From Acidobacteriota bacterium (lineage in GTDB: Bacteria; Acidobacteriota; UBA890; WLXD01): DNA of 64,000 nucleotides. Below the pieces are notes generated by a model that saw only the letters and a list, made by a program, of their open reading frames with translations, was not told the DNA's origin and did not search any database. The stretch's first letter is position 1, and every line of letters starts with the position of its first letter. Positions 4,516 through 63,540 of this stretch are shown here, piece by piece. The stretch spans positions 1,088,001 through 1,152,000 of the forward strand of contig CBDBHB010000008.1 of NCBI GenBank assembly GCA_965205505.1. Reading direction: 5' to 3'. A program made the position numbers and the translations under genes.

Positions 4516-4590
4516 CTACGGGTCCGTAGGCACGAGCCGCTTCAGCTCGTCGAACCGGTTGGTAACCAGCGTCACATGGCCGCCGGTGGT
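4516..4590 (-). pseudogene. C-terminal remnant of a PD40-bearing Ser/Thr kinase
   Basis: Translates to TTGGHVTLVTNRFDELKRLVPTDP*, matching the V-x-N-W-F-[DE]-E-L-K-R-L-V-P terminus of such kinases with a TGG to CGG change. Not in the ORF track. Confidence 0.6.
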
Positions 4591-5110
4591 CTGGCGCACT
4601 GGCTAGTGCCGGGGGAACGACACGAAACGCTGACAACGACTATCGCACGGTCCCCAAGAGACCCAAGTTTCGCGGGTCGCCGCCAGTCCTAGCGGGAGGC
4701 GAGCCCCAGCATAGCGACCCGCATGCCTGAGCCTAGTCCGACGGGCTCGGTGCGACCTGACACAGGCTGACACCGTGGTCTTCGGAGCCTTGAAGCGCGG
4801 CCGCGCTCCTTCGCGAACTCGTTCGCGTCGCAGACAAGCGCCTGGGGCTCGGGGGGTTGGGAGTCCTGCCCAAGGCGCAGGTTTCCTTCCTCCTGCACGT
4901 CCGTGCCCACTTCCAGTTATAAAAAGTGCTGTGCTGCCATCATTGTCATCAAAGAATAATGTCAGTAATGAAAGATAGTTTACACACCTTAAAAGACACT
5001 ATTACGTTGTCTAAGTTATGTAACCACGCAAGACATCAGAAACGCGGCACCTGCAACAGTTCGGCCTGTAGCAGATTCTCGCAACGCAACACTCGAAGGA
5101 GGAAGGCATC

Positions 5111-6247: not shown

Positions 6248-6306
6248 AGATGGCGGCCTCGACGAGCTCGAGGCGATTCCGGGTTCGCTCCTCTGCCGGG
6301 CAGCTC

Positions 6307-6440
6307 TATCGGGAAGACAATCGCCAGGATCTTGTCGGCAACGCTACGGCCTCCCATTGCCAGCCAGACCGCCAGGCACACGAGCACGTTGCAGAGAATA
6401 CCGCGACCTAACTAACGCGGCGACGAACGAGAGTGCCGCC
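6307..6440 (-). pseudogene. Internal fragment of a formate/nitrite transporter (FocA/NirC family)
   Basis: ALSFVAALVR, frameshift, then RGILCNVLVCLAVWLAMGGRSVADKILAIVFPI (FNT signature G-I-x-C-N-x-L-V-C-L-A-V-W). No start or remainder nearby. Confidence 0.75.
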
Positions 6441-6662
6441 GACCCGCGAGCGGCGAGTACAGCCCTGAGCTTCTCGGAAGACACGTTGCGTCGACGCCGG
6501 AGGCACACGGAGTGTCTTCGTCCCATGTCGCCCGGCACCGGAACGATGTAGGCTCGTCTTGGCTCGAGCACCGCGGACCGGACGCCTACGGTCGATGAGG
6601 CTCGGGATCGGAGTGAGCCCAACGCGGAGGCCGCTCCTGCTTCGGATGGCAAGAGAGGATCG

Positions 6663-7889: not shown

Positions 7890-9598
7890 CAACCGACTCG
7901 GCGACAGCAGGTCGCGCTGCAACACGTACGGGACGCTGCCCCCCCGCGCCCTGTCGGCGGCGACACCGTCGCCGGCTGTCGATACGGCGGATGTTGCCGC
8001 TCGCCCTGGGGTTTCTACTAGTAGCCCCCGCTGCGTCCCCGGCGCCGAATCCCCCCGGAGACTTGAGCTTCGTTCGTCTGACGGAGTCGCAGTACCGGCG
8101 GGCCATCCACGACATCTTCGGCGACAGCATCCGTGTTGACGACAGCGCCGTCGATCGCGGCGCCCGCGAAGGCGGGCTGCTGGCGATCGGAGCCCGAAAG
8201 CTGACGCTGAGCGCAGCCGAGCTCGAGCGCTCCGAGGCGCTCGCGCAACGAATCGCCGAGCAAGTGATTGATCCGCGACGCCGCGCAACCCTGATTCCCT
8301 GCACACCGAACGACGCGGGTATACCGGACGACGCGTGCGCCACGCGGTTCGTCACCCGGGTGGGGCTGTTTCTGTTCCGCCGTCCGCTCGAGGACGGCGA
8401 GGTTCGCGCGTATGTCGCCATGGCGAATGCCGCGACGCACACCCTCGACGACTTCTATGCCGGCTTGCGTGCGTCACTGGTCGGGATGCTCGTCGCCCCC
8501 GACTTCCTGCTTCGCCTCGAGCGCTCCGAGCCGGACCCCGACCGACCGGGAACGATGCGGTTGGACGCCTATTCGCGGGCCGCGCGGCTCAGCTTCTTTC
8601 TCTGGGACAGCACACCGGACGGTGAGCTGATCGAGGCGGCGCGATCCGGCGAGCTGCTCACGCCGGAGGGATTGAGCCGACAGGTCGAGCGACTGCTCAA
8701 CTCGCCGCGCCTGGAGAATGGCCTGCGCGCGTTCTTCTCGGACATGCTGGGGTTCGACGAGTTCGCAACGTTGACCGTCGACTCGAGCCTTTATCCCAAG
8801 TTCACCAAGAATGTCGAGGACGACGCCCGAGAGCAGACCCTCCGCACGATCGTCGACCAGCTGTTGCACAAGAACCGCGACTACCGAGAGCTGCTCGTTA
8901 CCCGCGAGACTTTCCTGACGCCCTCGCTCGCCGCCATCTACGGTGTGCCGCTGGCGCGATCGCAGGAGATGGGCGGGGCTGTACCGTGGGTTCCCTACCG
9001 CTTTGCGGATGACGACCCGCGAGTCGGCCTGCTGACGCACGTGAGCTTCCTGTCCCTGCACTCCCATCCCGGGACCACGTCGCCGACGCTGCGAGGCCAG
9101 GCGGTGCGCGAGAACCTTCTGTGCCAGATCGTGCCGCCGCCGCCCGGGGACGTCGATTTCAGCTTCGTCCAGGACACCAACAACCCCGACTTCAAGACCG
9201 TGCGCCAGCGCTTGTCGGTGCATCGGGAGAATCCGACGTGCGCCGGCTGCCACAGCCTCACCGATCCGATCGGCCTCACGCTCGAGGTGTTCGACACCTC
9301 CGGCGTCTACCGCACGACCGAGAACGGAGCGCCCATCGACCCGAGCGGCGAGCTCAACGGAAAGCCGTACGAGGAGATCACCGGTCTCGTGGAGATCCTC
9401 CGGCAAGAGCCGGCGGCAACGTCCTGTTTGATCAACCGGGCCTTTTCCTACGGCGCCGCCAGAACACCGACGCGGGATGAGCGCGCCTGGCTCGACGAGC
9501 TGACGTCGGAGCTGCGACGCGACGGCGTGAGGTGGCGCAACCTGATGCGTCGCATCACGCAGCAGCCCGACTTCTACACCCTCGGTACCGACGCCTGA
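7886..9598 (+). CDS. DUF1587/DUF1595/DUF1592/DUF1588/DUF1585 domain protein with c-type haem motif (start may be 7991)
   Basis: RLTESQYRRAIHDIFG, ARLSFFLWDSTPD, TSPTLRG, LLCQIVPPPP and CAGCH (CxxCH). Confidence 0.85.
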   Translation: MTTDSATAGRAATRTGRCPPAPCRRRHRRRLSIRRMLPLALGFLLVAPAASPAPNPPGDLSFVRLTESQYRRAIHDIFGDSIRVDDSAVDRGAREGGLLAIGARKLTLSAAELERSEALAQRIAEQVIDPRRRATLIPCTPNDAGIPDDACATRFVTRVGLFLFRRPLEDGEVRAYVAMANAATHTLDDFYAGLRASLVGMLVAPDFLLRLERSEPDPDRPGTMRLDAYSRAARLSFFLWDSTPDGELIEAARSGELLTPEGLSRQVERLLNSPRLENGLRAFFSDMLGFDEFATLTVDSSLYPKFTKNVEDDAREQTLRTIVDQLLHKNRDYRELLVTRETFLTPSLAAIYGVPLARSQEMGGAVPWVPYRFADDDPRVGLLTHVSFLSLHSHPGTTSPTLRGQAVRENLLCQIVPPPPGDVDFSFVQDTNNPDFKTVRQRLSVHRENPTCAGCHSLTDPIGLTLEVFDTSGVYRTTENGAPIDPSGELNGKPYEEITGLVEILRQEPAATSCLINRAFSYGAARTPTRDERAWLDELTSELRRDGVRWRNLMRRITQQPDFYTLGTDA

Positions 9599-9608
9599 GG
9601 AGCGGAAC

Positions 9609-10952
9609 ATGAGCGAATTCGACAAGATCAGCCGGCGTACCGTGCTGCGCGGCGTTCTGGGCGGGACAGGCGCCGTGGCGGTCGGGTTGCCAGTGCTCGA
9701 GTGCTTTCTGAACACGAACGGTACCGCCTACGCCGCCACTGGCTCATCGCTGCCACCCTGCTTCGGGACGTGGTTCTGGAGTCTCGGGCTGTCCCCCGGA
9801 CACTGGGAACCGACGGCCACGGGACCCGACTACGTCCTGCCGGACCACCTCGCCGCCCTGAATCCCATCAAGGAGAAGATGAACCTGTTCAGCGGCATGC
9901 AGGTGTTCCTCGACGGCAAGGCCAATCAGAACCACTATTCCGGCGCCCAGGGGCAAGCCACCGGCATCGTCTCCAAGAACGGCAGCGACTACACCACGAG
10001 CATCGACCACATCATCGGCGAGACGATCGGCAAGGGTACGAGGTTCCGATCGATCGAGATGGCGTGCGACGGCGACAGCCTCGCCGGCTGGAGCGCGCGC
10101 GGCTCCAACGGGATGAACCCCTCCGAGATATCGCCCCTGCAGCTGTACAGCCGTATCTTCGGCGACGGGTTCATTGATCCCAGCGCTGCCGAGTTCAAGC
10201 CCGATCCGGCCGTGATGGTGCGTCGAAGCGTGCTTTCTGCGGTTTCCGACGAGCGCAAGAGCCTGATGGCCACAGTTTCCGCGTCGGACCGGGCACGCCT
10301 CGACGAGTACTTCACGTCGCTGCGCGATCTCGAGCAGAAGCTGGCCTTCGAGCTCGAGCGGCCCGCCGATCTGCCCGCCTGTACGGTTCCGGTGGAAGCC
10401 ACGGACGACATCGGCCCGCTCGTGGGCCAGGTGGGGGAAACGCACCGACAGTTCGCGCAGCTGGCCGCGCACGCGCTGGCGTGCGGCCAGACGCGGGTCT
10501 TCAACCTGACGCTGGGCAACGCGTTTTCCCGGCTCCGCATCCCCGGAGATCCCAGTGGCTACCACTCGCTGACGCACGAGGAGCCGATCGATACCGACCA
10601 GGGGTATCAGCCCAAGTGCAAGTGGCTCGCGGAGCAGTGCATGGGCTTCTTTGCGGAGCTGGTGCAGACCTTGGACTCGATCCAGGAAGGAGACGGCACG
10701 CTGCTGGACCGAACCGTGGTCTTCGCGTTCACCGACCACGGCGAGGCGCGGATGCACTCGATGAAGCGTTACCCGATTCTGACCGCTGGCAGCGGCGGCG
10801 GCAGGATGAAGACGGGCCTCCACATGGCAGCCGAGGGCGACGCGGCCACCCGCGTCGGCTTGACCCTCCAGAAGGCGTTCGGTGTGGTGAGTGGGGCCTG
10901 GGGGACCGAGTCCAACGAGGTATCGAGCCCCTTCAGCGAGGTGCTGGCATGA
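9609..10952 (+). CDS. DUF1552 (HXXSHH-type) protein with Tat leader
   Basis: SRRTVLRG...GLPVLE leader, DRARLDEYFTSLRDLE, ALACGQTRV, YHSLTHE and EGDGTLLD. Confidence 0.87.
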   Translation: MSEFDKISRRTVLRGVLGGTGAVAVGLPVLECFLNTNGTAYAATGSSLPPCFGTWFWSLGLSPGHWEPTATGPDYVLPDHLAALNPIKEKMNLFSGMQVFLDGKANQNHYSGAQGQATGIVSKNGSDYTTSIDHIIGETIGKGTRFRSIEMACDGDSLAGWSARGSNGMNPSEISPLQLYSRIFGDGFIDPSAAEFKPDPAVMVRRSVLSAVSDERKSLMATVSASDRARLDEYFTSLRDLEQKLAFELERPADLPACTVPVEATDDIGPLVGQVGETHRQFAQLAAHALACGQTRVFNLTLGNAFSRLRIPGDPSGYHSLTHEEPIDTDQGYQPKCKWLAEQCMGFFAELVQTLDSIQEGDGTLLDRTVVFAFTDHGEARMHSMKRYPILTAGSGGGRMKTGLHMAAEGDAATRVGLTLQKAFGVVSGAWGTESNEVSSPFSEVLA

Positions 10953-51677: not shown

Positions 51678-51894
51678 TCCTTTGCGATCCCCGGGTTGCA
51701 GTTGAGGTCATCGACGCCGCCCTGGCGTGGGCCCGTGAGGACGACACGAAGGGGTTGTACCCTCGCCTCTACGGCAAGTTCCCCCGCGTATTGGGATACT
51801 AGTGCTCCTGATCATGACCTCGCTGCCGGCGCAGGTTCTGCGGCGGCGAGACAACTTCATAGTGATCACAAGTTGGCTCACCGGAGCGGGTTCC

Positions 51895-53964
51895 ATGGCC
51901 AAATATCACGTTGTCCTAGCAAGGCAAGCTAGCTCCTTCGCCGCAATCATGCTGTTGGCAGGCCTTTCTTACGCCGGCGGGCAGCTCTCCCCGACCGAAA
52001 GCCAGATCCTGAGCGCTCTGGATACCGACAGGACAATCGCCCTCACCCGCCGTCTCTCGGAGGAACTCGTCAAGAACGACTCGGGTGCGGGTGCCGGCTC
52101 GGCCATCGCCGGCAGCGCCGATGAGCGCCTCTTGGCCGGCTTCATCGAAGCGGAGATGAAGCGGCTAGGTTTGGATGTTCGGCGGGAGAGCTTCCCCGTG
52201 CACGCCTATGACTACGGGGAAGTGTCGCTAATCGCCGCTGGGAAAAGGCTCCCTGCGATCACCCTGCACACCGCCGCCGGTACCTCGGGTGCAGCCGAGG
52301 GAGTGCCCTATTCGAAGGGCAACACCGCGGGCGGAGGGACACTGCGGACGAAGCTGGTAGACGCCGAGGATGGGTTTGCCTCGGACTATGCGAAGCTGGA
52401 CGAAGTGCGGGGCAAAGCGGTACTCGTGCGCCGGCCAGGATGGCCCAGCGGCTACGTGGTGATGGAAGCGGCACAGCGGGGAGCCTCCGCCATCCTGTTC
52501 TACGACTATGGCAATTACAGCGGTGACTCGCCGGAAGACGCGTTGCAGCAGATGACCCTCGCGTATCGTGACCCGATCCCTGCAGTGACGATCAGCAACC
52601 GCGATGCCGCATGGCTCAAGGAACGGCTTGCCGAGGGCGAGGTGATGATCGAGCTGGAGAACCGGGTCGATGTCGACTACGGCTTTTCCGAGAACGTCAT
52701 CGGCATGCTACGGGGCAGGGAGTTTCCGGACGAGTGGATCGTGGTCTCGGCACACCACGACCGCTGGTTCCAAGGAGCCCAGGATGACAGCGTTGGTGTG
52801 GCCGTCATGCTGGAGCTGGCCCGCGTGATCTCGGAAGGTTACCGACCGCGGCGCAGCTTCCTGTTCATTGCCTTTGGAAGCGAAGAAGTCGGAGGACTGT
52901 GGACCGAGTACGACTGGCTGGCGGGTTCCCATGCGTTCATCCGGGCGCACCCCGAAGTCACCTCGCGTCTGGCCTACGCCTACAACGTCGATGGCGCCGG
53001 GTGGTCGGGGCGTGAGGGCCGGGTGTATGCCACACTCGATCAGGTTGCCTTGCAGCGCGAATTGCTGGCGGAGCTCGATCTTCAGGATCGGGTGACGGTG
53101 CAACCGGGTGTGGCCCGATGGAACGACGCCTGGTCACTCGGAGGCGTCCGGGGCGGAGCGGTCTCATATCTCTCCTGGGAGGGTGAATACGGTCGTTACT
53201 ACCACACAGAGCACGACGTCTACCGTGCCGACGACTACACAAACCTGATCGACGACCTGCGGCTCGGAGCACTCGGCGTGCTTCGGGTCGATCAGTCGGT
53301 CGTTTTGCCAATTCGTTTCTCGGACGTCGCCGACTGGGTTTCCGGGCAACTCCGGAGCATGGAGGGAATACTCTCCGACGTTGCCGGGGGGTCGGAGCTG
53401 CTCCGCGAGGCTCAGAAGGGAGCCGACATTCTACGTACGCAGGCCGACAAAGCAGAGGCGGCCTATTCGTCGATAGGTGATGCCGCTGATGCAACGTTGC
53501 TGAACGCCTTGCTGATGAACACTCGCCACGACCTCGTTCCTTGGCTACTCAACACAGAAGAGCGCCTGCGAGGAAGCCGCTACGCGGAAGACTTCGCCGC
53601 TCTCCAGAGGGCTCGTCTTGCTGCTGCAGCAGGGGATACGGAGGCAACGGCGAGGGCACTCGAGGAGGTCAACACGATGCAGTGGGGCAAGCGGGTCTCA
53701 ACGGCGACCTACCGCGCAGAAAGACTGCTCTCGTACGAGCCGATCGGTTGGATGCGGGAGTTTGACCAGCACCCGCGTCCGGTCAGTCCGGAACTCCACG
53801 CTATCTACTCGCAGCTCAGGGAGGGCGGCGGTAGTTCACGTCTGGCCTCCAGGATCGCCAGGCTCAAGGCGCAGGCGGAGGGCTCGCTGCGCGAGGCGCT
53901 GTTCATAGTAGGCGGCAAACTCCGGGAAGCCGCAAGCAAGCTTGCCGAGGCACAGCTGCCCTGA
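51895..53964 (+). CDS. Exported M28 family metallopeptidase with PA domain (copy 1)
   Basis: Signal peptide, GKAVLV (PA), SAHHD, GAQDD, GSEE, NVD and YHT. Confidence 0.87.
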   Translation: MAKYHVVLARQASSFAAIMLLAGLSYAGGQLSPTESQILSALDTDRTIALTRRLSEELVKNDSGAGAGSAIAGSADERLLAGFIEAEMKRLGLDVRRESFPVHAYDYGEVSLIAAGKRLPAITLHTAAGTSGAAEGVPYSKGNTAGGGTLRTKLVDAEDGFASDYAKLDEVRGKAVLVRRPGWPSGYVVMEAAQRGASAILFYDYGNYSGDSPEDALQQMTLAYRDPIPAVTISNRDAAWLKERLAEGEVMIELENRVDVDYGFSENVIGMLRGREFPDEWIVVSAHHDRWFQGAQDDSVGVAVMLELARVISEGYRPRRSFLFIAFGSEEVGGLWTEYDWLAGSHAFIRAHPEVTSRLAYAYNVDGAGWSGREGRVYATLDQVALQRELLAELDLQDRVTVQPGVARWNDAWSLGGVRGGAVSYLSWEGEYGRYYHTEHDVYRADDYTNLIDDLRLGALGVLRVDQSVVLPIRFSDVADWVSGQLRSMEGILSDVAGGSELLREAQKGADILRTQADKAEAAYSSIGDAADATLLNALLMNTRHDLVPWLLNTEERLRGSRYAEDFAALQRARLAAAAGDTEATARALEEVNTMQWGKRVSTATYRAERLLSYEPIGWMREFDQHPRPVSPELHAIYSQLREGGGSSRLASRIARLKAQAEGSLREALFIVGGKLREAASKLAEAQLP

Positions 53965-54057: not shown

Positions 54058-55050
54058 ATGATGACCATCCCGAGAGGCAAGGGCCTGATCGCGCTGCTAC
54101 TCCTGTTCTTGGTCGCGGTGGCCGTGGTTGTGGCCGTGCCGCAGCGTTACATGATCAGGTACCAGGCCTGGGACCCCGCCGAGGCCCCGCCGCTCCTCGA
54201 CCAGGTGGACGAGGGGCCCGGAGTGCGCTGGCACGACGACTACTTCACTGTTCAAGCCCTCGATGCGCGCACCTTCGCCATTGGCGAGCCGCGCTATTAC
54301 CAGCAGAACTACAACTACCTGCTCCTGGGAACCGAGCGCGCCGTGTTGTTCGACGCCGGCCCCGGCGTTCGCGACATCCGACCGGTCGCGCAGGCGCTCA
54401 CCGATCTCCCCTTGACCTTCGTGCCTTCCCATTTCCACGTCGACCACGTAGGCAACGAGATCACCTTCGAGCACGTGGCGGTGATCGATCTTCCCTACTT
54501 GCGTGCTCGCGCGCCCGACAACCGTCTGCAGCTCACGGACCGCGAGCACGTGGGATTCCACGAGGGCATTGCCCCGCCCACTCTCGAGGTCGACGAGTGG
54601 ATCTCGGCCGGAGGCACCATGCAGCTGGGCGACCGCGCGCTGCGAGTCCTCTACACGCCCGGCCACACGGAAGACTCGATCTCGCTTCTCGACGTGGGTT
54701 CCGGCCAGCTGTTCTCAGGCGATTTCATTTATCCCGGACCGCTGTACGCGTATATGCCGAACAGCGGCATGGGCGACTACGTGCAGGCCGCTGACACGGT
54801 GCTGAGCTCCGCTCCGGCAGGCGTCCGCATCTTCGGCGCGCACCGGGGCGGGCAGCCCGGAGCGCCACGGCTGACCCTGGCCGATGTGCAGGAACTCAGA
54901 GCCGCGCTGGACGCGATACGAAGCGGAGAACTCTCGGGCGAGGGGTTCTACCCGGTCCGGTACCGGATCAACTCGCGGCTGCGCCTACTCGCGGACCCCT
55001 GGTGGTTGCAGAACTGGACGCCACGCCGCCCGTCGTTGGCAGGTCGCTGA
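54058..55050 (+). CDS. Membrane-anchored MBL-fold metallo-hydrolase
   Basis: N-terminal hydrophobic helix, SHFHVDH, TPGHT, FSGD and GAH. Confidence 0.87.
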   Translation: MMTIPRGKGLIALLLLFLVAVAVVVAVPQRYMIRYQAWDPAEAPPLLDQVDEGPGVRWHDDYFTVQALDARTFAIGEPRYYQQNYNYLLLGTERAVLFDAGPGVRDIRPVAQALTDLPLTFVPSHFHVDHVGNEITFEHVAVIDLPYLRARAPDNRLQLTDREHVGFHEGIAPPTLEVDEWISAGGTMQLGDRALRVLYTPGHTEDSISLLDVGSGQLFSGDFIYPGPLYAYMPNSGMGDYVQAADTVLSSAPAGVRIFGAHRGGQPGAPRLTLADVQELRAALDAIRSGELSGEGFYPVRYRINSRLRLLADPWWLQNWTPRRPSLAGR

Positions 55051-55118
55051 TGCCGCGGATCAGCGCCGGCATCCTGCTCTACCGGCGCGGCCAAGTAAGC
55101 CTGGAGGTTCTCATAGTG
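55050..55118 (+). pseudogene. N-terminal stub of a NUDIX hydrolase (COG4119-like)
   Basis: MPRISAGILLYRRGQVSLEVLIV with TGATG coupling to the MBL stop. It breaks where HPGGP is expected. Confidence 0.65.
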
Positions 55119-55148
55119 ATCGCAAGATGGCTCACCGGAGCGGGTTCC

Positions 55149-57221
55149 ATGGTCAAGTATCACGTTGTCCTGACAAGGCAAGCTAGCTTCTTTGCCGCCA
55201 TCATGCTGTTGGCAGGCCTTTCTCAGGCCGGCGCGCAGCTCTCCTCGACCGAAAGCCAGATCCTGAGCGCTCTGGATAGCGACAGGACCATCGCCCTCAC
55301 CCGCCGTCTCTCGGAGGAGCTCGTCAAGAACGACTCGGGTGCGGGTGCCGGCTCGGCCATCGCCGGCAGCGCCGATGAGCGCCTCTTGGCCGGCTTCATC
55401 GAGGCGGAGATGACGCGGATGGGTCTGGAGGTGCGGCGCGAGAGCTTTCCCGTGCACGCCTACGACTACGGCAAAGTACTGCTGCGGGCATCGGGCAGAC
55501 AGCTGGCAGCGATCACCCAGCACTCCGGCGGCGGGACCTGGGGCACTGCCGAGCGCGTGCCGTATACGAAGGGCAACACGTCGGGTGGACAGCGGTTGCA
55601 AGCGGCCTTGCTCGATGCCGGAGAAGGCTGGGTCCATGACTACGCTGATCTGAGCGAGGTGCGCGGCAAGGCCGTGCTGGTGCGCCGTGGAGCGGATTGG
55701 CTCAACAGCCAGGTCGTGATGGAGGCGGCAGAGCAGGGAGCGTCCGCGATCTTGCTCTACGACTACGACAGCGGTGCCGAGGCTCCCCAGGACTCGATCC
55801 AGCAGATGAGCATCGTCTACCGCGACCCGATCCCGACCGTGACGATCAGCAACCGCGATGCCGCATGGCTCAAGGAGCGCCTTGCCGACGGCGAGGTGAC
55901 GATCGAGCTGGAGAACCGGGTCGATGTCGACTACGGCTTCTCGGAGAACGTCATCGGCATGATCCGGGGCACGGAGTATCCGGACGAGTGGATCGTGGTC
56001 TCGGCCCACCACGACCGCTGGTTCCAAGGAGCCCAAGATGACAGCGTCGGAGTGGCCGTCGTGCTGGAACTGGCCCGCGTCATCTCGGAGGGTTACCGGC
56101 CGCGGCGCAGCTTCTTGTTCATTACCTTTGGCAGCGAGGAAGTCGGGGGGCTGTGGACCCAGTTCGACTGGCTGGCGGGCTCCCACGCGTTCATCCGGGC
56201 GCACCCCGAGATCACGTCGCGACTGGCCTATGCCTTCAACGTCGACCTCGCTGGATGGAGGGGGCGCGAGGGCCAGGTGCGTGCCACCCTCGACCAGGTT
56301 GCCTTCCAACGTGAATTGCTGGCCGACCTCGGCCTCGACGAGCGGGTAACGGTGCGTGAGCACGTCAGCACCGGCGTCGATGCCTGGTCTTTGGGAGGGG
56401 TTCGGGGCGGAGCGGTGGCAACCCTGAGCTGGACGGGTGACGTCCCCTACAGCCGCTACTACCACACGCAGCACGATGTCTATCGAGCCGAGGACTACGC
56501 CAACCTGGAGCACGACCTGCGACACGGGGCACTCGGCGTGCTGCGGATGGACCAGGCTGTCGTCCTGCCCGTCGGCTTCTCGGAGATCGCCGACTGGGTC
56601 ACCGAACAGCTCGACAGGATCGAGCAGACGGTCTCCTCGCTCTCGACACCGACGGACCTGCTTCGCGACGCCAGACAGGCGGCAGAGCGCCTTCGCGCGC
56701 AGGCTGAAAGGCTGGCAGCGACCTCAGCGTCCGTGGAGGATGGCAATCACGCAGCGGTCGTCAACGCGCTCTTGATGAGGACCCGACACGATCTCGTTCC
56801 CTGGCTTCTGAGCACAGAAGGACGCCTGAGAGGAAGCCGTTACGCGGAAGATTTCGCTGCACTCCAGAGAGCCCGTCTCGCTGCCACGGATGAAGATACG
56901 GAGGCTGCGGCGAGCGCGCTCGAGGATGTCAACACGATGCTGTGGGGCAAGCGGGTCTCGCCCGAGACCTACCGTGCTGAGAGGCTGCTGTCCTACGAGC
57001 CGACCGGTTGGATGTGGGAGTTCGACCAGCACCCACGTCCGGTCGGTCCGGAGCTGCACACCATCTACTCGCAGCTCGGGGCGGGACGCGGCGCCGCTTC
57101 GGTCGCCGGGATCGGCAGGCTCGAGGCGCAGGCGGAGGGCTCGCTGCGTGAGGCATTGTTCATCGTCAACGGTAAGCTCCGGGAAGCTGCGAGGGCCCTT
57201 GCCGATGGTCCTCCACCGTGA
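55149..57221 (+). CDS. Exported M28 family metallopeptidase with PA domain (copy 2)
   Basis: Colinear paralogue of 51895..53964 with the same metal-ligand motifs. Confidence 0.87.
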   Translation: MVKYHVVLTRQASFFAAIMLLAGLSQAGAQLSSTESQILSALDSDRTIALTRRLSEELVKNDSGAGAGSAIAGSADERLLAGFIEAEMTRMGLEVRRESFPVHAYDYGKVLLRASGRQLAAITQHSGGGTWGTAERVPYTKGNTSGGQRLQAALLDAGEGWVHDYADLSEVRGKAVLVRRGADWLNSQVVMEAAEQGASAILLYDYDSGAEAPQDSIQQMSIVYRDPIPTVTISNRDAAWLKERLADGEVTIELENRVDVDYGFSENVIGMIRGTEYPDEWIVVSAHHDRWFQGAQDDSVGVAVVLELARVISEGYRPRRSFLFITFGSEEVGGLWTQFDWLAGSHAFIRAHPEITSRLAYAFNVDLAGWRGREGQVRATLDQVAFQRELLADLGLDERVTVREHVSTGVDAWSLGGVRGGAVATLSWTGDVPYSRYYHTQHDVYRAEDYANLEHDLRHGALGVLRMDQAVVLPVGFSEIADWVTEQLDRIEQTVSSLSTPTDLLRDARQAAERLRAQAERLAATSASVEDGNHAAVVNALLMRTRHDLVPWLLSTEGRLRGSRYAEDFAALQRARLAATDEDTEAAASALEDVNTMLWGKRVSPETYRAERLLSYEPTGWMWEFDQHPRPVGPELHTIYSQLGAGRGAASVAGIGRLEAQAEGSLREALFIVNGKLREAARALADGPPP

Positions 57222-57385: not shown

Positions 57386-58768
57386 ATGAGCCCCAGGAAA
57401 GGCGAGGGCAAGAAAGACGGCATGAGCCGCCGCGACTTCGCCAAGACCTCCGCTGCCGTGGGTGCCGCTGCAGTCACGCTCCCGAAAGAGCTACGTGCCG
57501 CGACGGCCTTGGGGAAAAGACGCCAGAGCTCTCCGAACGGCTGGACAGCGGGCACGACAATTCCGGCGGAATACTACGTCGACGAGCGGCAATACGTCGC
57601 GGATGAGCGTTCGCTCGCCGAGAGCCTCTGGCTCTACGTCGACCACGAAAGCCGCATCCGCGAGCCGGGCGACTACTTCGTTTTCGAGTACGGGCGCGCC
57701 GAGAGCGTCATCGTGCTACGTGACACGGCGGGAGAGGTCAGGGCGTTCTACAACGTCTGCCGGCATCGAGGATCACGTCTGTGCCGGCACGACGGCGATC
57801 CGATTCCGGGCGATCCTCGCCTGTCCGTCCGCCAACTCGGCGAGAGCGGCAGCACACCGGTGTTTCGCTGCCCGTACCACGCCTGGACCTATGACATCGA
57901 CGGCAACCTGATCTATGCCTACGGCATGCAGGACGACTTCGACCCGGTGGACAACGGCCTGGTCCCGTGTCACGTGCGAACGGCGGAGGGCAGCATCTTC
58001 GTCAGCCTGTCGCGGCAGAACGAGCCACCGGACTTCGAGTCCGCTGTCTCACAGCTACGGATCATGGGGCATTACTACGGACATGCAGGCCTGAAGATCG
58101 CCGCGCGGGAGAGCCACCCGATCCATGCCAACTGGAAGCTGGTGCTGGAGAACTTCTCGGAGTGCTATCACTGCGGGCCAACCCACAAGGGATTGACCAC
58201 GACCCACAACTACGACTACGACGCCACGCCCGAGCAGCTGGCGGCGCGCAACGCTGCGGTAGCCGAATGGCTGACACCGGCGGGCAGGATACGGCCCGAG
58301 GCCCCCGAGGGGGGGCCGCGGTTGACCGGCAACCTCAACCCCGGCTTCGTCACGGGCTCTCCCGACGGCAAGTCGGTGGCACCGCTGCTTCCCAACATCG
58401 AGCAGCCGACTCACGGCACCAACGAGGCCTACACGGGCCACTACACCGGCTACTGGCAATCCTACGACGACTATGTTGTCGCGATCCGGTTCACGCCTCG
58501 AGATGTCGAGCTCACCGAAGCTGAGATCATCTGGTTGGTGCACCCGGACGCCGTGGAGGGGAGAGACTACGATCTGGCGACCCTCAAGGCCTTCTGGCAG
58601 GTCATCCTGCAGGAAGACATCTGGGTCATCGGCAACAACCACAGGGGCATTCTCTCGGGCGCCTATCGTTCAGGCCCGTACTCTACCCACGAAAACACCA
58701 CGGCCGAGTTCATCAAGTGGTACATGGCGGAGGTCGTAACGACCGGAGAGCGTCCAGACCCGGCATAG
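57386..58768 (+). CDS. Rieske non-haem iron oxygenase alpha subunit (GbcA/choline monooxygenase-like) with Tat leader, copy 1
   Basis: GAGGAG RBS, SRRDFAK leader, CRH...CPYH, NWKLVLENFSECYHCGPTH and QEDIW. Confidence 0.9.
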   Translation: MSPRKGEGKKDGMSRRDFAKTSAAVGAAAVTLPKELRAATALGKRRQSSPNGWTAGTTIPAEYYVDERQYVADERSLAESLWLYVDHESRIREPGDYFVFEYGRAESVIVLRDTAGEVRAFYNVCRHRGSRLCRHDGDPIPGDPRLSVRQLGESGSTPVFRCPYHAWTYDIDGNLIYAYGMQDDFDPVDNGLVPCHVRTAEGSIFVSLSRQNEPPDFESAVSQLRIMGHYYGHAGLKIAARESHPIHANWKLVLENFSECYHCGPTHKGLTTTHNYDYDATPEQLAARNAAVAEWLTPAGRIRPEAPEGGPRLTGNLNPGFVTGSPDGKSVAPLLPNIEQPTHGTNEAYTGHYTGYWQSYDDYVVAIRFTPRDVELTEAEIIWLVHPDAVEGRDYDLATLKAFWQVILQEDIWVIGNNHRGILSGAYRSGPYSTHENTTAEFIKWYMAEVVTTGERPDPA

Positions 58769-58817
58769 GTTGCCAGCTCCTACAGAGTTCACCGGCCGAA
58801 AGAGCTTGGAGGGCGGG

Positions 58818-60143
58818 ATGAGCAAGAACGAGGAAGCCACCACGTCGACCCGGCGTGACCTGGCGCGCAGCGCCGTTATCGGGTACACGGCCGCCGCCCT
58901 CGGGCTACCGAGGAACCTGCTTGCCCGGGCGATTCCGGATACGGGCCAGATGGGCGACGGGGAATCCGGCCCTGCGGGGTGGGTCCGAGACACAATTGGA
59001 GCCGAGTACTACACGGACGAAGCGCGCTACCTGGTCGATGAGCGCCTGGTGGCCGACCATTTCTGGCAAATGGTCGACCACGAGAGCAGGATCCCCAATG
59101 CGGGCGACTTCTTCGTGTTCGAGTACGGTCGCAGCGAGAGCATTCTGATCGTTCGCGGGCGGGACAACGAAGTGCGCGGCTTTTACAACGTGTGCCGCCA
59201 CCGCGGCTCGCGCCTGTGCCGTCACGATGCGGATCCGATCCCTGAGGATCCACGCCTGTCGGTCAAGCAGCTCGGACAGTCCGGTAGCTCACCGGTGTTC
59301 CGCTGCCCGTACCACGCCTGGACGTACGACACCGAAGGCAGCCTGATCTATGCCTATGGCATGCAGGAAGACTTCGACCCGGCGGACAACGGCCTCATCC
59401 CCTGCCACCTCCGCACGGCAGACGGCTTCATCTTCGTGAACCTGTCGCGAGAGCCGGAGCCGCCGGAGTTCGAGTCAGCGATCGAGCCCTTCCGCCGCAA
59501 GGTGGGTCAATCACACGGCACCGCAGACTTGAAGGTCGGCGAGCGCGTCTACGTCGCGATGCGCGCCAACTGGAAGCTGGCGCTGGAGAACTTCCTGGAG
59601 TGCTACCACTGCGGGCCGTCGCACGACTACCTGTGCTACGTGTTCCCGAACATCGACCTCTCGATCCCGGAATCTCAAAGGCCTGCGCGAGGGATGCCTG
59701 CGGGCTTCGTCAGCGCCACCCTCGACGGCAAGCCGGCGGCACCGTTGCTGCCCGCCTTCGAGAGCAGAACCGGCAGGAAGGTGGGAAGCGACGCGGCAAC
59801 AGGGTGGTCGACCGGGTACTGGTCTCCCAACGAAGACTACGTCTTCGCAGTTCGATTCACCCCCCGTGATGTTGACCTCACCGACGTGGAGTGCACCTGG
59901 CTCGTGCACCCGGATGCGAAGCGAGGAGTGGATTACGACCCGGAGAGGCTGAAGGAGATCTGGTTCGTCACGCTCCTGGAGGACATCTGGTTGTGCGAGA
60001 ACAACCACATTGGCATACGCTCGGGCGCCTACCGGCCCGGGCGCTACGCCACCCATGAGATTGGCCGGATATTGCCGGCTAATTTCATGCACTGGTACGT
60101 GAACGCCGTGGCGGGCAACGTCGGGCGGGTGATGGCGTACTGA
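58818..60143 (+). CDS. Rieske oxygenase alpha subunit with Tat-like leader, copy 2
   Basis: GGAGG RBS, TRRDLAR leader, CRH...CPYH, ENFLECYHCGPSH and LEDIWLCE. Confidence 0.9.
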   Translation: MSKNEEATTSTRRDLARSAVIGYTAAALGLPRNLLARAIPDTGQMGDGESGPAGWVRDTIGAEYYTDEARYLVDERLVADHFWQMVDHESRIPNAGDFFVFEYGRSESILIVRGRDNEVRGFYNVCRHRGSRLCRHDADPIPEDPRLSVKQLGQSGSSPVFRCPYHAWTYDTEGSLIYAYGMQEDFDPADNGLIPCHLRTADGFIFVNLSREPEPPEFESAIEPFRRKVGQSHGTADLKVGERVYVAMRANWKLALENFLECYHCGPSHDYLCYVFPNIDLSIPESQRPARGMPAGFVSATLDGKPAAPLLPAFESRTGRKVGSDAATGWSTGYWSPNEDYVFAVRFTPRDVDLTDVECTWLVHPDAKRGVDYDPERLKEIWFVTLLEDIWLCENNHIGIRSGAYRPGRYATHEIGRILPANFMHWYVNAVAGNVGRVMAY

Positions 60144-60161
60144 CGAGCTTGGAGGATGGGG

Positions 60162-61544
60162 ATGAGCAAGAAAGAGGAAGGCAACAAATCGACCCGGCGT
60201 GACTTGGCGCGTAGCGCTGTTGTCGGCTACACCGCCGCCGCCCTCGGGCTGCCAACGCACCTGCTTGCCAGGGACGTTCCGGATGTGGGCCAGATGGCCG
60301 GCGGGGAATCGGGCGCAGCAGGGTTGCGAAGAGCCACGATTGACGCCGAGTACTACACGGACGGAGAGCGCTGGGCGTTCGATGAGCGCCTGGTGGCCGA
60401 CCATTTCTGGCAAATGGTCGACCATGAGAGCAGGATTCCCGATGCGGGCGACTTCTTCGTGTTCGAGTTCGGTCGCAGCGAGAGCATCCTGATCGTGCGT
60501 GGGCGGGACAACGCAGTGCGCGGCTTCTACAACGTGTGCCGCCACCGCGGCTCGCGCCTGTGTCGTCACGACGCAGATCCGATCCCCGAGGATCCACGCC
60601 TGTCGGTCAAGCAGCTCAGCCAGTCGGGCAGCTCGCCGGTGTTCCGCTGCCCGTACCACGCCTGGACGTACGACACCGAAGGCAGCTTGATCTATGCCTA
60701 CGGCATGCAGGAGGACTTCGATCCGGCGGACAACGGCCTGATCCCCTGCCACCTCCGCACGGCAGACGGCTTCATCTTCGTGAACCTGTCGCGCGAGCCG
60801 GAACCGCCGGAGTTCGAGTCAGCGGTCGAGCCCTTCCGCCGCGATGTGGGCGGACCCCACGGGACCGCACAATTGAAGGTCGGCGAGCGAGTCTTCGTGC
60901 CGATGCACGCCAACTGGAAGCTGGCGCTGGAGAACTTCCTGGAGTGCTACCACTGCGGGCCGTCGCACGACTACCTGTGCTACGTGTACCCGGGCTCTGA
61001 CTTCACGACCGAATCCGAGAAGCAAGGGAAGGGTGGGCTGCTCAACGGATTCGTCACCGGCACAATGGACGGCAAAGCGGCGGCACCGTTGCTGCCCGCC
61101 TTTGAGGGCACCGACGCGAGGACGACGTCACGCACGTCGACCGAAACGACGTCGGGTTGGTCGACCGGATATTGGCTCGGATACGACGATCACGTCTTCG
61201 CGGTTCGATTCACCCCCCGTGATGTCGATCTCACCGACGTGGAATGCACCTGGCTCGTGCATCCGGATGCGAAGCGCGGCGTGGACTACGATCCGGAGAG
61301 GTTGAAGGAGGTGTGGCTCGTCACGCTTCTAGAAGACATCTGGTTGTGCGAGAACAACCACGCCGGCATTTGCTCTGGCGCCTACGCGCCTGGCCGCTAC
61401 GCCACTCATGAGCGTAGCCCGTCCAGATTCATACAGTGGTATATGGCCGCCGTGGCGGGTGACATCGGGCCGGCGCAGAACCCACGTCGCCGTGAGAGTC
61501 CGACTGCGCGCCTCGAGGGTCCAGAGAGTACGTTGCTGACCTGA
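60162..61544 (+). CDS. Rieske oxygenase alpha subunit with Tat-like leader, copy 3
   Basis: Close paralogue of copy 2 with the same motifs and the same upstream GAGCTTGGAGG leader. Confidence 0.9.
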   Translation: MSKKEEGNKSTRRDLARSAVVGYTAAALGLPTHLLARDVPDVGQMAGGESGAAGLRRATIDAEYYTDGERWAFDERLVADHFWQMVDHESRIPDAGDFFVFEFGRSESILIVRGRDNAVRGFYNVCRHRGSRLCRHDADPIPEDPRLSVKQLSQSGSSPVFRCPYHAWTYDTEGSLIYAYGMQEDFDPADNGLIPCHLRTADGFIFVNLSREPEPPEFESAVEPFRRDVGGPHGTAQLKVGERVFVPMHANWKLALENFLECYHCGPSHDYLCYVYPGSDFTTESEKQGKGGLLNGFVTGTMDGKAAAPLLPAFEGTDARTTSRTSTETTSGWSTGYWLGYDDHVFAVRFTPRDVDLTDVECTWLVHPDAKRGVDYDPERLKEVWLVTLLEDIWLCENNHAGICSGAYAPGRYATHERSPSRFIQWYMAAVAGDIGPAQNPRRRESPTARLEGPESTLLT

Positions 61545-61611
61545 ATCTGCGAGTTGCTGCTGCAGGCAACGACAGCCGGCAACGAGCGAGCTCCGCCTAC
61601 CCGACGTGCAT

Positions 61612-63540
61612 ATGAGAGATCGGGATCTTCAGCTGGGAATGTGCCGGGAGATCACCCGTCGCGATTTCGTCTCCGGTATCAGCGTAGCGCTGAGCGGCAG
61701 CCTGGCGCTGCCGTGGGCGCAGACGGACGCCCTGGCGAGCCCCGGGTCTTCGGGGCGGAGCCCGCAGGCCATGGCGGCCGCGTATCCACCGATCCGGACC
61801 GGCATGCGCGGCAGTCACGAAGGCTCCTACGAGGTTGCTCATCAGCTTCGAGATGGCGTGCGCTGGTACAATCCGGAGGAGACCGGTGAGCTCTACGACC
61901 TGATCGTGGTCGGTGGCGGCATCAGTGGCCTCGCATCGGCATGGTTTTTCAGAGAAGCCGTTCCCGGGGCGCGCATCCTGATTCTCGACAACCACGACGA
62001 CTTCGGCGGTCATGCCAAGCGCAACGAGTTCTGGCACGAAGGTCAGATGGAGCTGTCGCATGGCGGCACCATCTTCATCTCCAACTTACACCGGTACAGT
62101 GCGGCAGCCCAGCGCCTGATCCGCGGGATCGGCATCGACGTGAGCCGCTACTCCGAGTTCCTCGATGAGGACCTGTACAGCTCGCTCGGTATGCGCGGGT
62201 CGGTCTTCTTCGACCGCGAAACCTTCGGCACCGATCGGCTGCTGACGGGCGAAGGCAAGCCCTCCTGGCGCGAGTTTCTGGCGCACGCACCCTTGTCCGA
62301 GGCGGCCCGTGAGGACCTTGTACGACTACACGAATCGGACGTCGATTATCTGGCGCACCTCAGCTTGGAGGAGAAGGTCGAGTACCTTCAGCACACGAGC
62401 TACGAAGACTTTCTCTTGCAGGCAGTCAAGATCAGCCCGGAGGCGGTCTCCTTCCTCGAGACGTCCAACGGCTGGGCGATCGGCATCGATGCCATCTCAG
62501 CCTGGACCGGCGCCGGCAGCCGGCCCGGAACCACCGGGCTCGGATTCGGTAACAACGATGAGGGCGCCGAAACCACCGAGGAGCGGGCGTTCTTTCAGTT
62601 CCCGGATGGCAACTCTTCCGTCGCGCGCCTGCTCGTCCGGTCGCTGATCCCCGACGTCGCTCCAGGCACCACGATGGAGGATGTCGTCGCGGCCAGATTC
62701 GACTACGGCAAGCTCGATCGGGAAGACTCGCCCGTGCGCGTGCGTCTGGAGAGCACGGCGGTGCGGGTGGGCCACCGTGGCGACCCGCAGACCGCCGAAG
62801 AAGTCGAGGTCACCTACGTCCGCCACGGCCGCGCCCAACGAGTTCGCGCCGGCCGCTGTGTGCTTGCCTGCTACAACGCGGTCATTCCTCACATTTGCGA
62901 CGAGCTGCCGGATACGCAAGAGCATGCGCTATCGAACGCTCTCAAGGCGCCCCTTATCTACACCAATGTCCTGATCCGCAACTGGACCGCCTTCCAGAAG
63001 CTCGGCACGCACGAGGTGCGCTGCCCGGGCAGTTATTTCGACAATGTAAATCTGACGCCGCCGATCAGCATTGGAGGCTACCGACATGCGCGCACGCCCG
63101 ACGAGCCCACCGTGGTGCGCATGTGGCGCGCCCCCCTGGTGCCCGAGGCCCGCGGGCGGTCCGCGGCGGAGCAATGGAAGGCCGCCCGCCGGAGCCTGGT
63201 GACGACGACGTTCGAGACCTTCGAGCGCAAGATCAGGGATCAGCTCGGCCGCATACTCTCCGCCGGTGGCTTCGACCCGGCGCGCGATATCGAGGCGATC
63301 ACTGTGAACCGCTGGCCGCACGGTTATGCCTACGGCCACGATCTGGAGACCGGCCAGATCGCATGGAGGCTCGATGAGATACCGCCCGAGCGCTCTTCGT
63401 GGATCGTTGCCCGCCAGCCTGTCGGCCGCATCGCCATCGCCAACTCGGACGCGATGGCCGACGCAATGACCGAAGGTGCGATCGGCGCGGCGCATCTGGC
63501 CGTCGAGGCGCTCGTTGCCCCCGAGACAACGCCATTGTGA
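61612..63540 (+). CDS. Spermidine dehydrogenase (SpdH)-like flavoprotein with Tat leader
   Basis: ITRRDFVSG, YPPIRTGMRGSHEGS, VVGGGISG, DFGGHAKRNEF, FPDGN, ITVNRWPHGYAY and RIAIANSD. Confidence 0.85.
   Translation: MRDRDLQLGMCREITRRDFVSGISVALSGSLALPWAQTDALASPGSSGRSPQAMAAAYPPIRTGMRGSHEGSYEVAHQLRDGVRWYNPEETGELYDLIVVGGGISGLASAWFFREAVPGARILILDNHDDFGGHAKRNEFWHEGQMELSHGGTIFISNLHRYSAAAQRLIRGIGIDVSRYSEFLDEDLYSSLGMRGSVFFDRETFGTDRLLTGEGKPSWREFLAHAPLSEAAREDLVRLHESDVDYLAHLSLEEKVEYLQHTSYEDFLLQAVKISPEAVSFLETSNGWAIGIDAISAWTGAGSRPGTTGLGFGNNDEGAETTEERAFFQFPDGNSSVARLLVRSLIPDVAPGTTMEDVVAARFDYGKLDREDSPVRVRLESTAVRVGHRGDPQTAEEVEVTYVRHGRAQRVRAGRCVLACYNAVIPHICDELPDTQEHALSNALKAPLIYTNVLIRNWTAFQKLGTHEVRCPGSYFDNVNLTPPISIGGYRHARTPDEPTVVRMWRAPLVPEARGRSAAEQWKAARRSLVTTTFETFERKIRDQLGRILSAGGFDPARDIEAITVNRWPHGYAYGHDLETGQIAWRLDEIPPERSSWIVARQPVGRIAIANSDAMADAMTEGAIGAAHLAVEALVAPETTPL

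Follow-up and report, generated by a model that had tools for sequence, protein, structure and literature searches.

How would a Rieske oxygenase that carries an export-type leader, and has no reductase gene beside it, be supplied with electrons? The question is raised by a window of 64,000 nt, the whole stretch of DNA analysed here, which covers positions 1,088,001–1,152,000 (forward strand) of contig CBDBHB010000008.1 from an Acidobacteriota bacterium (UBA890; WLXD01; assembly GCA_965205505.1, 96% complete). It contains three Rieske oxygenase genes (R1–R3) followed by a gene for an SpdH homologue (F); R and F are also used below for the respective families. Rieske oxygenases are classed by their NAD(P)H reductase/ferredoxin chains and are treated as cytoplasmic. 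In the reading we favor, R1–R3, alpha subunits of catalytically intact Rieske monooxygenases, would be exported through Tat and fed by periplasmic carriers, namely a cytochrome c and/or the haem b of SpdH-type proteins. We assign a probability of about 0.6 to this reading as a whole, including the electron path and the substrates proposed below. The features of the locus are as follows.

57386..58768, + strand: R1, Rieske oxygenase alpha subunit of 460 aa, Stc2/GbcA-like, with an N-terminal Tat-type leader
57386..57508, + strand: R1 leader, with a charged n-region, SRRDFAK, 13 uncharged residues, and an A-T-A site
58818..60143, + strand: R2, Rieske oxygenase alpha subunit of 441 aa, with a catalytic-domain loop shorter than that of R1
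58818..58931, + strand: R2 leader, with TRRDLAR, 14 uncharged residues, and an A-R-A site; kept in the orthologues P0001–P0012
60162..61544, + strand: R3, Rieske oxygenase alpha subunit of 460 aa; its subclade always has F next (6/6 rows)
60162..60275, + strand: R3 leader, with TRRDLAR and an uncharged stretch
61606..63540, + strand: F, SpdH-type FAD/haem b amine dehydrogenase of 644 aa, full length, with the Tat-type leader TRRDFVS (approximately residues 1–44)

A Shine–Dalgarno-like sequence (GGAGG/GAGGAG) lies 6–11 nt 5' of the start codons of R1, R2, and R3, and thus the R leaders are translated. A structure model of R1 showed its leader as disordered except for one short helix. The R3–F spacing of 67 bp in the original prediction holds if F starts at the ATG at 61612, but the start at 61606 leaves 61 bp. 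In two studies, RNA-library contigs (runs X1, X2, X4, and X5) matched small parts of R1, R2, R3, and F with 0–4 mismatches, one contig spanning the R1/R2 junction and another the R3/F junction. Because the libraries come without a DNA control, and because contigs do not prove a transcript, these matches give at most a weak hint that the genes are expressed; stretches without a match carry no information.

The three co-oriented alpha subunits had been predicted to retain intact Rieske and mononuclear-iron ligands, and the domain and alignment analyses bore this out. Pfam detected the Rieske (PF00355) and Ring_hydroxyl_A (PF00848) domains in each of R1, R2, and R3. In alignments of 114 and 100 sequences, C125/H127/C162/H165 (Rieske centre) and H262/H267 and D411 (mononuclear iron) were invariant, with D411 matching the carboxylate region of Stc2. 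R1–R3 do not belong to the GbcA equivalog family (NCBIfam NF058607), scoring 231, 218, and 219 bits against a cut-off of 670. The two-domain fold is common to R, Stc2 (3VCA/4QUP), TM1040_3219 (3N0Q), CntA (6Y8J), and GbcA; Foldseek yielded target TM-scores of ~0.8 (E ~1e-31) for Stc2 and 3N0Q. Sequence identity is 28–30% to Stc2 and 3N0Q, and 19–22% to CntA. R and the Stc2 group share the Rieske ligands, the ECYHxxxxH iron motif, and the NWK motif, and neither has a beta subunit. Unlike Stc2, the R clade has 17 extra residues inserted between its two Rieske ligand motifs. To our knowledge, the characterised relatives Stc2, CntA, and GbcA are all cytoplasmic. In contrast to these, R carries a Tat-type leader and linker, is linked to cytochrome c and SpdH-type genes, and occurs in a genome without a GbcB- or CntB-type reductase.

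A Rieske [2Fe–2S] centre is also found in the Rieske subunit of the bc1 complex and in the small subunit of arsenite oxidase, neither of which is an oxygenase. Both have their cluster made in the cytoplasm, are exported through Tat, and exchange electrons with c-type cytochromes. They lack a mononuclear-iron catalytic domain and carry the high-potential CxHxGC/CPCH motifs, whereas R has motifs of the oxygenase type and a complete catalytic domain. No obvious high-potential signature was seen in the Rieske motif of R.

In Tat signals, which lie close to the N-terminus, a [S/T]RRxFLK-like motif is followed by a stretch of weak hydrophobicity. The twin-arginine leaders predicted for each R and for F were confirmed in all four proteins. 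Loss of the RR pair among homologues had been named as an observation that would speak against export; the pair was kept in 111 of 114 aligned close relatives of R, in the form [S/T/N]RRx[F/L] followed by an uncharged stretch (median run of 16 residues) and a linker of variable length. The RR lies at residue 7 to 44 and is separated from the mature IPAEYY motif by 44–107 residues; in the three members without a leader, the protein begins with the mature domain. R2 and R3 do lack the consensus Phe, which had originally been taken to make their export less certain; Leu at this place is a regular variant (13/111 leaders) that the R2 and R3 orthologues keep. In a search of every cluster representative, leaders were confined to matches of at least 49% identity, apart from a 43% fragment and a chance RR at 34%; full-length matches at or below 41% identity were mostly 360–450 aa long and had no leader. 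Judged by these alignments, the leader is a trait of one R clade. In Fuerstiella (Planctomycetota), the RR of R occurs together with a lipobox (LVGC).

A simplified Tat rule passed 14 of 15 R and 22 of 26 F proteins of the source genome, compared with 125 of the 3532 remaining rough gene calls. The curated models gave a patchier picture. TIGR01409 detected R1 (19.2 bits, cut-off 16.7), did not match R2 or R3, and scored F at 11 bits. Pfam TAT_signal (PF10518) remained below its cut-off; among 100 relatives, it gave E ≤ 0.01 in seven and reached the cut-off in none, which makes this model too insensitive to decide. The uncharged stretches are short, with 13 residues in R1 and 14 in R2, and a clear AxA cleavage site is missing from many relatives. 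Tat machinery is present in the genome, with two intact TatC genes, one truncated TatC copy, and one TatA gene. On sequence grounds, the leaders of R1, R2, and R3 are conserved Tat-type signals, and their conservation points to export of R through Tat.

The window had been described as lacking a ferredoxin, a flavin reductase, and a beta subunit; a scan of 38 of its ORFs (9 + 29) likewise found no ferredoxin, reductase, or beta subunit. Ferredoxin, FNR-type, and GR-type reductase domains were absent from all 173 scanned neighbour proteins of R. Genome-wide, neither PF00866 (beta subunit) nor PF14759 (Reductase_C) had a match. PF00175 had two matches, which overlapped none of the 13 Fer2 matches: one adjoins a dihydroorotate dehydrogenase-like gene and the other has no Fer2 domain. 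No protein combined PF00175 with PF00111, as an FNR/[2Fe–2S] fusion would. No canonical reductase was found beside any R or elsewhere in the genome. Of Rieske oxygenases without a leader, the genome does encode one confirmed case, fused to an aldehyde dehydrogenase, and a further relative detected by tblastn and PF00355 only. Consequently, some cytoplasmic means of reducing such enzymes must exist. A small Rieske ferredoxin is included in the suf cluster.

Outside the source genus, R is adjoined by a small lipoprotein monohaem cytochrome c with a CxxCH motif and an LAxGC lipobox. The cytochrome c gene lies directly downstream of R in six records (L058, L059/L063, L032/L064, L033, L062, and L065) and is convergent with R in two (L034 and L035), the phyla represented being Acidobacteriota, Binatota, and Planctomycetota. 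The linkage of a lipoprotein cytochrome c to R across three phyla is new. The R-linked cytochrome c is of class I (PF13442), with invariant C77/C80/H81, a conserved distal MP motif, and a lipobox in most members. A contig scan kept the best 80 cytochrome c loci, 79 of which were compared by blast, and L033 was checked separately; R lay upstream in only the 5 best of the 80 loci kept. The 64-kb window itself contains no cytochrome c gene. Within the source genus, an orthologous cytochrome c follows an F paralogue in four of five genomes checked. Hence, each of the adjacent pairs R–F, R–cytochrome c, and F–cytochrome c was observed, and two records bring all three genes together, as F–R–cytochrome c (L032) and F–R–R–cytochrome c (L059). 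These arrangements directly support, and refine, the alternative donor ("a cytochrome") that had been considered originally. Complex prediction for the L058 R (residues 60–473) and its operonic cytochrome c (residues 50–169) gave a score of 0.00 in both runs, which were made without controls, and it speaks neither for nor against the pairing.

F aligned end to end with SpdH (PDB 7D9F/7D9I, E ~3e-148) and keeps the FAD GxGxxG motif and the haem b histidines His54 and His562, so its description as SpdH-like proved correct. When strict regular expressions were applied to the SpdH criterion (FAD motif and two haem b histidines), two motifs were kept in 21 and 22 of the 26 F proteins of the source genome. 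Beyond the FAD motif and haem b ligands, F shares the RRDF leader with P. aeruginosa SpdH (PA3713; 7D9F–7D9J). It differs from SpdH in a conserved extra n-region (DRxLGMxRxIT) before the RR, in being operonic with Rieske oxygenases, and in being one of ~27 paralogues at ~34–78% identity. Given this divergence, the substrates of the F paralogues probably differ among themselves. The haem b ligands of SpdH have been identified, and its haem b is surface-exposed, receives electrons from FAD, and is capable of direct electron transfer, with a reported electrode onset of −0.14 V vs Ag/AgCl (PMC12564564). PA3713 appears among the validated Tat substrates (PMC6085387). F, like R2 and R3, misses the curated Tat models, though this Pseudomonas homologue is a validated substrate. 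F was also present in 27 sampled genomes without R, and thus does not depend on it.

With these results in hand, the favored reading can be laid out as a sequence of steps. R1–R3, probably alpha3 as in Stc2, would receive their [2Fe–2S] cluster in the cytoplasm, be exported folded through Tat, and act in the periplasm or at the periplasmic membrane face. Since the periplasm has no NAD(P)H, the two electrons per turnover would have to reach the Rieske centre from periplasmic carriers. At the level of the family, the partner would be the small lipoprotein monohaem cytochrome c. F may oxidise an amine on its FAD and pass the electrons to its surface haem b. It could thereby plausibly feed the cytochrome c, or R itself, and is also a candidate second step of the pathway. 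R would likely carry out oxidative N-dealkylation or hydroxylation of amines, combined with C–N cleavage of secondary amines by F, and the two may belong to a large set of periplasmic enzymes acting on nitrogen-rich organic matter. We know of no established physiological electron acceptor for SpdH. Redox potentials speak against this scheme: the SpdH onset exceeds the potential typical of oxygenase Rieske centres, and that of His/Met c-type cytochromes is usually higher still. Supply by a haem protein is known or proposed for other monooxygenases: the animal CMP-Neu5Ac hydroxylase, a Rieske oxygenase, draws on the haem b protein cytochrome b5, and for particulate methane monooxygenase a supply from periplasmic methanol dehydrogenase via a cytochrome c has been proposed. 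Both resemble the arrangement proposed for R in being fed by a haem protein without a dedicated NAD(P)H reductase and in recycling electrons from the oxidation of a product or co-substrate. They belong to other families or compartments, and the likeness is one of analogy, with no sequence kinship.

The cytochrome c might be dispensable in the source genus if F were itself the reductase of R, with electrons passing from the amine through FAD to a surface haem b docked on the Rieske domain. The gaps of 10–61 bp between R and a following F in the source genome, the constant R3–F pairing, and the electron-transfer properties of the SpdH haem b all fit this scheme, as does the presence of F in six of the seven R-positive sampled genomes. 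We nevertheless consider it unlikely, because L033, L034, L035, L058, L062, and L065 contain R and the cytochrome c but no F, a search of G038 at E ≤ 1e-60 did not detect F, 39 of 53 R rows have no adjacent F, and F is widespread without R. A related scheme accepts export but tethers R to the outer face of the inner membrane through an uncleaved leader and an Ala/Pro/Thr-rich linker, with membrane-bound donors and F as a mere pathway neighbour. The missing AxA site in many relatives, the long and variable linker, the lipoprotein nature of the cytochrome c partner and, by prediction, of the Fuerstiella R, and the RR anchor on the genome's own bc1-type Rieske protein would agree with tethering. 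Yet 13–16 uncharged residues are short for a membrane span, and R1 and R2 do have A-x-A sites; we regard this arrangement as rather improbable.

The curated Tat models that miss R2, R3, and most relatives, and the cytoplasmic location of Stc2, CntA, and GbcA, could instead be taken to mean that R never leaves the cytoplasm. The RR extension would then be an assembly, regulatory, or membrane-association peptide, and a generic ferredoxin or flavodoxin would be the donor; the leaderless Rieske oxygenases of the genome, which need reducing, and the suf-cluster Rieske ferredoxin are compatible with such a supply. Set against this are the near-universal retention of RR, uncharged stretch, and variable linker, the lipobox variant of Fuerstiella, and the failure to find a canonical reductase. 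Moreover, R is flanked in other lineages by the gene of a lipoprotein cytochrome c, a protein that is extracytoplasmic by nature, and the SpdH family contains a validated Tat substrate (PMC6085387). A cytoplasmic R seems quite improbable to us on this balance, and we retain the reading of exported oxygenases fed by periplasmic carriers.

The literature searched, at the level of titles and abstracts, contained no description of Tat-exported or periplasmic Rieske oxygenases. A bolder version of our reading, which we put forward tentatively and with the odds somewhat against it, is an undescribed Rieske oxygenase class that is Tat-exported, is NAD(P)H-independent, and has a lipoprotein cytochrome c as its dedicated donor. 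Dehydrogenases of the SpdH type, and perhaps also of the PQQ type, would release periplasmic electrons from the same substrates or from the aldehyde/amine products, organic-nitrogen oxygenation would be redox-balanced outside the cytoplasm, and the 17-residue insertion beside the Rieske cluster would be the docking site of the haem partner. If the favored reading is true, an extracytoplasmic R clade running on cytochrome-borne electrons would represent a new class of electron supply. It would likewise account for the ability of some Acidobacteriota, Binatota, and Planctomycetota to attack nitrogen-rich organic matter before uptake, and the source genome's content of ~17 intact leader-bearing R genes and ~27 F genes would reflect an investment in such matter. 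Biocatalysis would gain an oxygenase drivable by a haem protein or an electrode-active dehydrogenase, and the physiological electron acceptor of SpdH would become directly testable.

A 1556-aa open frame over R in G038 was considered as a fusion and rejected, as the two genes in it lie in different frames. A search for long fusions of R from the Tat clade yielded none to a cytochrome or SpdH; the sole match of this search, which we rate as weak evidence, was a 35%-identical fusion to a sodium:solute symporter. Among the 53 R rows, with subclades read from a quick IQ-TREE tree, 12 had R followed by F, including all six of the R3 subclade. Most R paralogues in the source genome adjoin neither F nor the cytochrome c. 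The neighbours of R are enzymes and receptors of the exported type: PQQ dehydrogenases (some with a cytochrome c domain), amidohydrolases, peptidases, and TonB-dependent receptors.

The four genes at the end of the window share one orientation. Their open reading frames were called as follows:

57386-58768, + strand, R1, Rieske oxygenase alpha subunit with a Tat-type leader
58818-60143, + strand, R2, Rieske oxygenase alpha subunit with a Tat-type leader
60162-61544, + strand, R3, Rieske oxygenase alpha subunit with a Tat-type leader
61606-63540 (alternative start ATG 61612), + strand, F, homologue of the FAD/haem b amine dehydrogenase SpdH

Domain search found a Rieske domain and a ring-hydroxylating catalytic domain in each R protein. 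The ligands of both metal centres had been described as intact in the three alpha subunits. Alignments of 100–114 relatives confirmed this: the Rieske ligands C125, H127, C162 and H165 and the iron ligands H262, H267 and D411 were invariant and aligned with the Stc2 motifs. The R genes are catalytically intact, and the catalytic subunit is of a known type. GbcA was the best curated family for R1–R3, but the scores (218–231 bits) fell far under its cut-off (670); the three proteins are therefore no equivalogs of GbcA. The nearest solved structures by sequence were Stc2 (3VCA/4QUP) and 3N0Q (~183 bits), followed by CntA. The AlphaFold2 model of R1 (mean pLDDT 83; residues 1–47 of low confidence except a short helix at 15–24) matched Stc2 and 3N0Q at a target TM-score near 0.8 and 28–30% identity. 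Unlike Stc2, the R clade carries a 17-residue insertion between the Rieske ligand motifs. This span was 41–43 residues in 15/15 intact copies examined in the host genome (G000), and only 15–22 in leaderless relatives.

Good Shine-Dalgarno motifs (GAGGAG, GGAGG and GGAGGA) lie 6–11 nt upstream of the three R start codons; the N-terminal extensions are therefore translated. Leaders were compared in 114 sequences: the best 120 relatives of R2, minus nine, plus the three window proteins. Eight were dropped for N-termini truncated or mis-called within the hydrophobic stretch (P0008, P0014, P0061, P0083, P0085, P0086, P0110, P0111), and P0027 because its N-terminus is identical to that of R1. Conservation among homologues, suggested earlier as a check, was evident: 111 of the 114 kept RRx[F/L] (Phe 98, Leu 13), at residue 7–44 (median 17); the uncharged run that comes next has a median length of 16 residues. 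A highly variable linker sets the RR 44–107 residues from the conserved mature motif IPAEYY. The three exceptions (P0026, P0031 and P0068; 412–415 aa) all start at the mature domain. Export of R2 and R3 had been considered less certain for want of the Phe. This doubt was not borne out, because the Leu variant occurs in 13 leaders and the R2/R3-type leader (TRRDLARSAV.GY.AAA.G.P) is kept in their orthologues, with a varying linker. In a Fuerstiella R, one N-terminus combines RR and a lipobox.

Among all cluster representatives searched, the leader was limited to one clade of at least 49% identity, apart from one 43%-identical fragment with a leader and a chance RR in a 34%-identical match. Full-length matches at ≤41% identity were mostly 360–450 aa long and leaderless. 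Our own simplified Tat rule was passed by 14/15 R and 22/26 F copies of the host genome vs 125/3532 other rough gene calls; the failing copies mostly had mis-called starts, and one F copy lacked its N-terminus. The curated models were weak: among R1–R3 and F, only R1 passed TIGR01409, while F, whose SpdH family is validated for Tat, scored just 11 bits, and Pfam TAT_signal stayed below its cut-off for R, F and relatives. PMC6085387 places the P. aeruginosa SpdH protein PA3713 (signal MTISRRDFLNG...) among validated Tat substrates, and F has the same leader motif. Judged by sequence, the R leaders are conserved Tat-type signals.

The SpdH-like assignment of the gene after R3 was upheld. Over its whole length F aligned with the spermidine dehydrogenase of P. 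aeruginosa (7D9F/7D9I; E ~3e-148), and both haem b histidines, counted on this alignment, were kept (EVAHQ and NRWxHGY). According to PMC12564564, that enzyme has a surface-exposed haem b with His54 and His562 as its ligands, and FAD reduces this haem while substrate is oxidised; direct electron transfer to an electrode has an onset of −0.14 V vs Ag/AgCl. Nearly all of the ~27 SpdH-like paralogues in the host genome have DRxLGMxRxITRRDF leaders; the DRxLGMxRxIT stretch right before the RR pair is missing in P. aeruginosa SpdH.

Canonical reductases are absent from the host genome and from the R neighbourhoods. We scanned up to three genes per side of every R at 27 related and 13 host-genome loci (172 proteins chosen in this way and one more included by hand). 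No reductase had been seen in the window, and ferredoxin, FNR-type and GR-type reductase domains were found in none of the 173 neighbours. A reductase elsewhere had been named as the countercheck. The host genome (5.98 Mb, 96% complete; close relatives labelled Acidobacteriota) gave 0 matches to Reductase_C (PF14759) and 0 to the beta subunit (PF00866). PF00175 matched only twice, once beside a dihydroorotate dehydrogenase-like gene and once as NAD_binding_1 alone, and none of the 13 Fer2 matches coincided with it. The sole small Rieske ferredoxin found is leaderless and lies in an apparent suf cluster.

The recurrent R neighbours were exported-type enzymes: PQQ dehydrogenases (8 R loci, two with a cytochrome c domain), Amidohydro_3 proteins, M28, S9, S15 and M24 peptidases, beta-lactamase-fold proteins and TonB-dependent receptors, with a flavin amine oxidase in one case. 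The window, with its TonB-dependent receptor, sulfatase, amidohydrolases, formamidase and two M28 peptidases, fits this pattern. Outside the window's genus, R is adjoined by a small monohaem cytochrome c (~150–190 aa, PF13442) with an invariant CxxCH and, in most copies, an LAxGC lipobox.

Small cytochrome c genes adjoining R, by genome or locus record
G038 (L058): directly downstream of R; 5 nt past the R stop if the start is TTG 8797
G254 (L059 = L063): order F-R-R-cytochrome c
Polarisedimenticolia MAG (L032 = L064): order F-R-cytochrome c
Binatia MAG (L033): directly downstream of R
Another Acidobacteriota MAG (L062): directly downstream of R
Fuerstiella MAG, Planctomycetota (L065): directly downstream of R
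L034, L035: convergent to R

When genome contigs were searched with a profile of the cytochrome alignment, only the top five of the best 80 loci had R upstream, which marks the R-linked cytochromes as a discrete subgroup; neither R nor F was found at the other 75. Several metagenomic copies start with a peptide equal to the R 3' end in another frame, suggesting that they likewise follow an R gene. The orthologue in the host genome (contig C9:3075004-3075567, lipobox TLAC) comes after an F paralogue, with 47 bp between them, and F is also followed by the cytochrome in G069, G275 and G130. The R, F and lipoprotein cytochrome c genes are linked. Beside the Polarisedimenticolia operon, L032:3911-5881 (−) encodes a 656-aa multihaem cytochrome c with 19 CxxCH in the open frame.

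We infer that folded, cluster-loaded R would be exported by Tat and that its Rieske centre would be reduced by the cytochrome c and/or the SpdH haem b, with amines as the probable substrates. Each periplasmic oxidation of an amine or aldehyde by F, and perhaps by the PQQ dehydrogenases, would yield two electrons; R needs two per oxygenation, making the scheme attractive for redox economy. It is weak on thermodynamics: the Rieske centres of oxygenases usually have low potentials, whereas typical His/Met cytochromes are higher, as is the SpdH electrode onset given above. The R motifs carry no obvious high-potential signature. A possible role of the 17-residue insertion, which lies beside the cluster, is to adjust the potential or to provide a docking site. 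At the level of search listings and abstracts, which is not proof of absence, we found no description of Tat-exported or periplasmic Rieske oxygenases, and a search on SpdH and passages of PMC12564564 and PMC6085387 made no mention of a Rieske partner. What would be new, if true, is the extracytoplasmic compartment of R and, as a consequence, how its electrons are supplied.

Across 301 sampled Acidobacteriota genomes (thresholds E<=1e-90 for R, E<=1e-60 for F), Tat-clade R occurred in seven: 5/5 of the genus, G000 counted, and the distant G038 and G254. It occurred in 0/6 other genomes of the family and 0/15 of the order. Co-occurrence of R with spdH had been proposed for a survey: F is present in 33/301 genomes, among them 6/7 of the R-positive ones. 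The six best-scoring cytochrome c matches were all in R-positive genomes, which counts for at most three lineages because three of the sequences are in the model and four genomes are close kin. A quick tree of 53 R sequences placed cytochrome-linked R from diverse taxa near the base, with a genus-specific radiation above. R-then-F was concentrated in subclades of this radiation (R3 subclade, 6/6 rows), and the order R1-R2-R3-F was conserved in G069.

In the host genome, R has 17 intact paralogues with leaders, besides a split copy and several fragments. F comes directly after R both in the window and at C8:1167626; the gene order is R-F-R-F at C9:2060262-2068061 and F-R-R-fragment-F-F-F at C9:3097755-3110033. 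For Tat machinery, the genome has a TatA gene and two intact TatC copies. The R-F-R-F cluster is followed directly downstream (C9 ~2059100-2059800) by TatA (71 aa, L051:5563-5778, −) and a truncated TatC (131 aa, L051:5126-5521, −; profile positions 2-97 of 208). In L016, an R-R-F cluster has just upstream of it, at 4259-7299, a PQQ dehydrogenase (~651 aa) and two DUF4440/SnoaL-like genes. The same arrangement, at C9:3094264-3097350 (L052), precedes the F-R-R cluster of the host genome; there the PQQ call is based on N-terminal sequence and the L016 orthologue, and one DUF4440 gene was domain-scanned.

The genome has two leaderless Rieske oxygenases, one confirmed and one probable. The confirmed one is a 925-aa fusion to an aldehyde dehydrogenase (L055:8221-10998, +; C6:336220-338997), which adjoins class-III aminotransferase and ABC transporter genes with no evident reductase; it has the look of a cytoplasmic enzyme that handles amines or betaine aldehyde in two steps. 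The R paralogues L041 (C7:158478-160229) and L046 (C8:350385-352016) hardly differ (branch lengths of 0 and 0.0075 in the tree) and appear to stem from recent duplication, possibly through a mobile element; L041 has a phage-type integrase and an HsdM fragment next to it, and a flavin amine oxidase gene (PF01593, 294 bits) comes after L046.

Directly upstream of R1 in the window are two paralogous M28/PA-domain peptidases (51802-53964, 720 aa; 55002-57221, 739 aa; both +) whose N-terminal stretches are nearly identical; between them lies a metallo-beta-lactamase-fold gene (54058-55050). In L014, too, an M28/PA gene precedes the orthologue of R1. At 7886-10949 (+), a DUF1552 protein comes after a Planctomycete-type DUF1592/DUF1588/DUF1595/DUF1585 protein; the pair appears unrelated to R and F.
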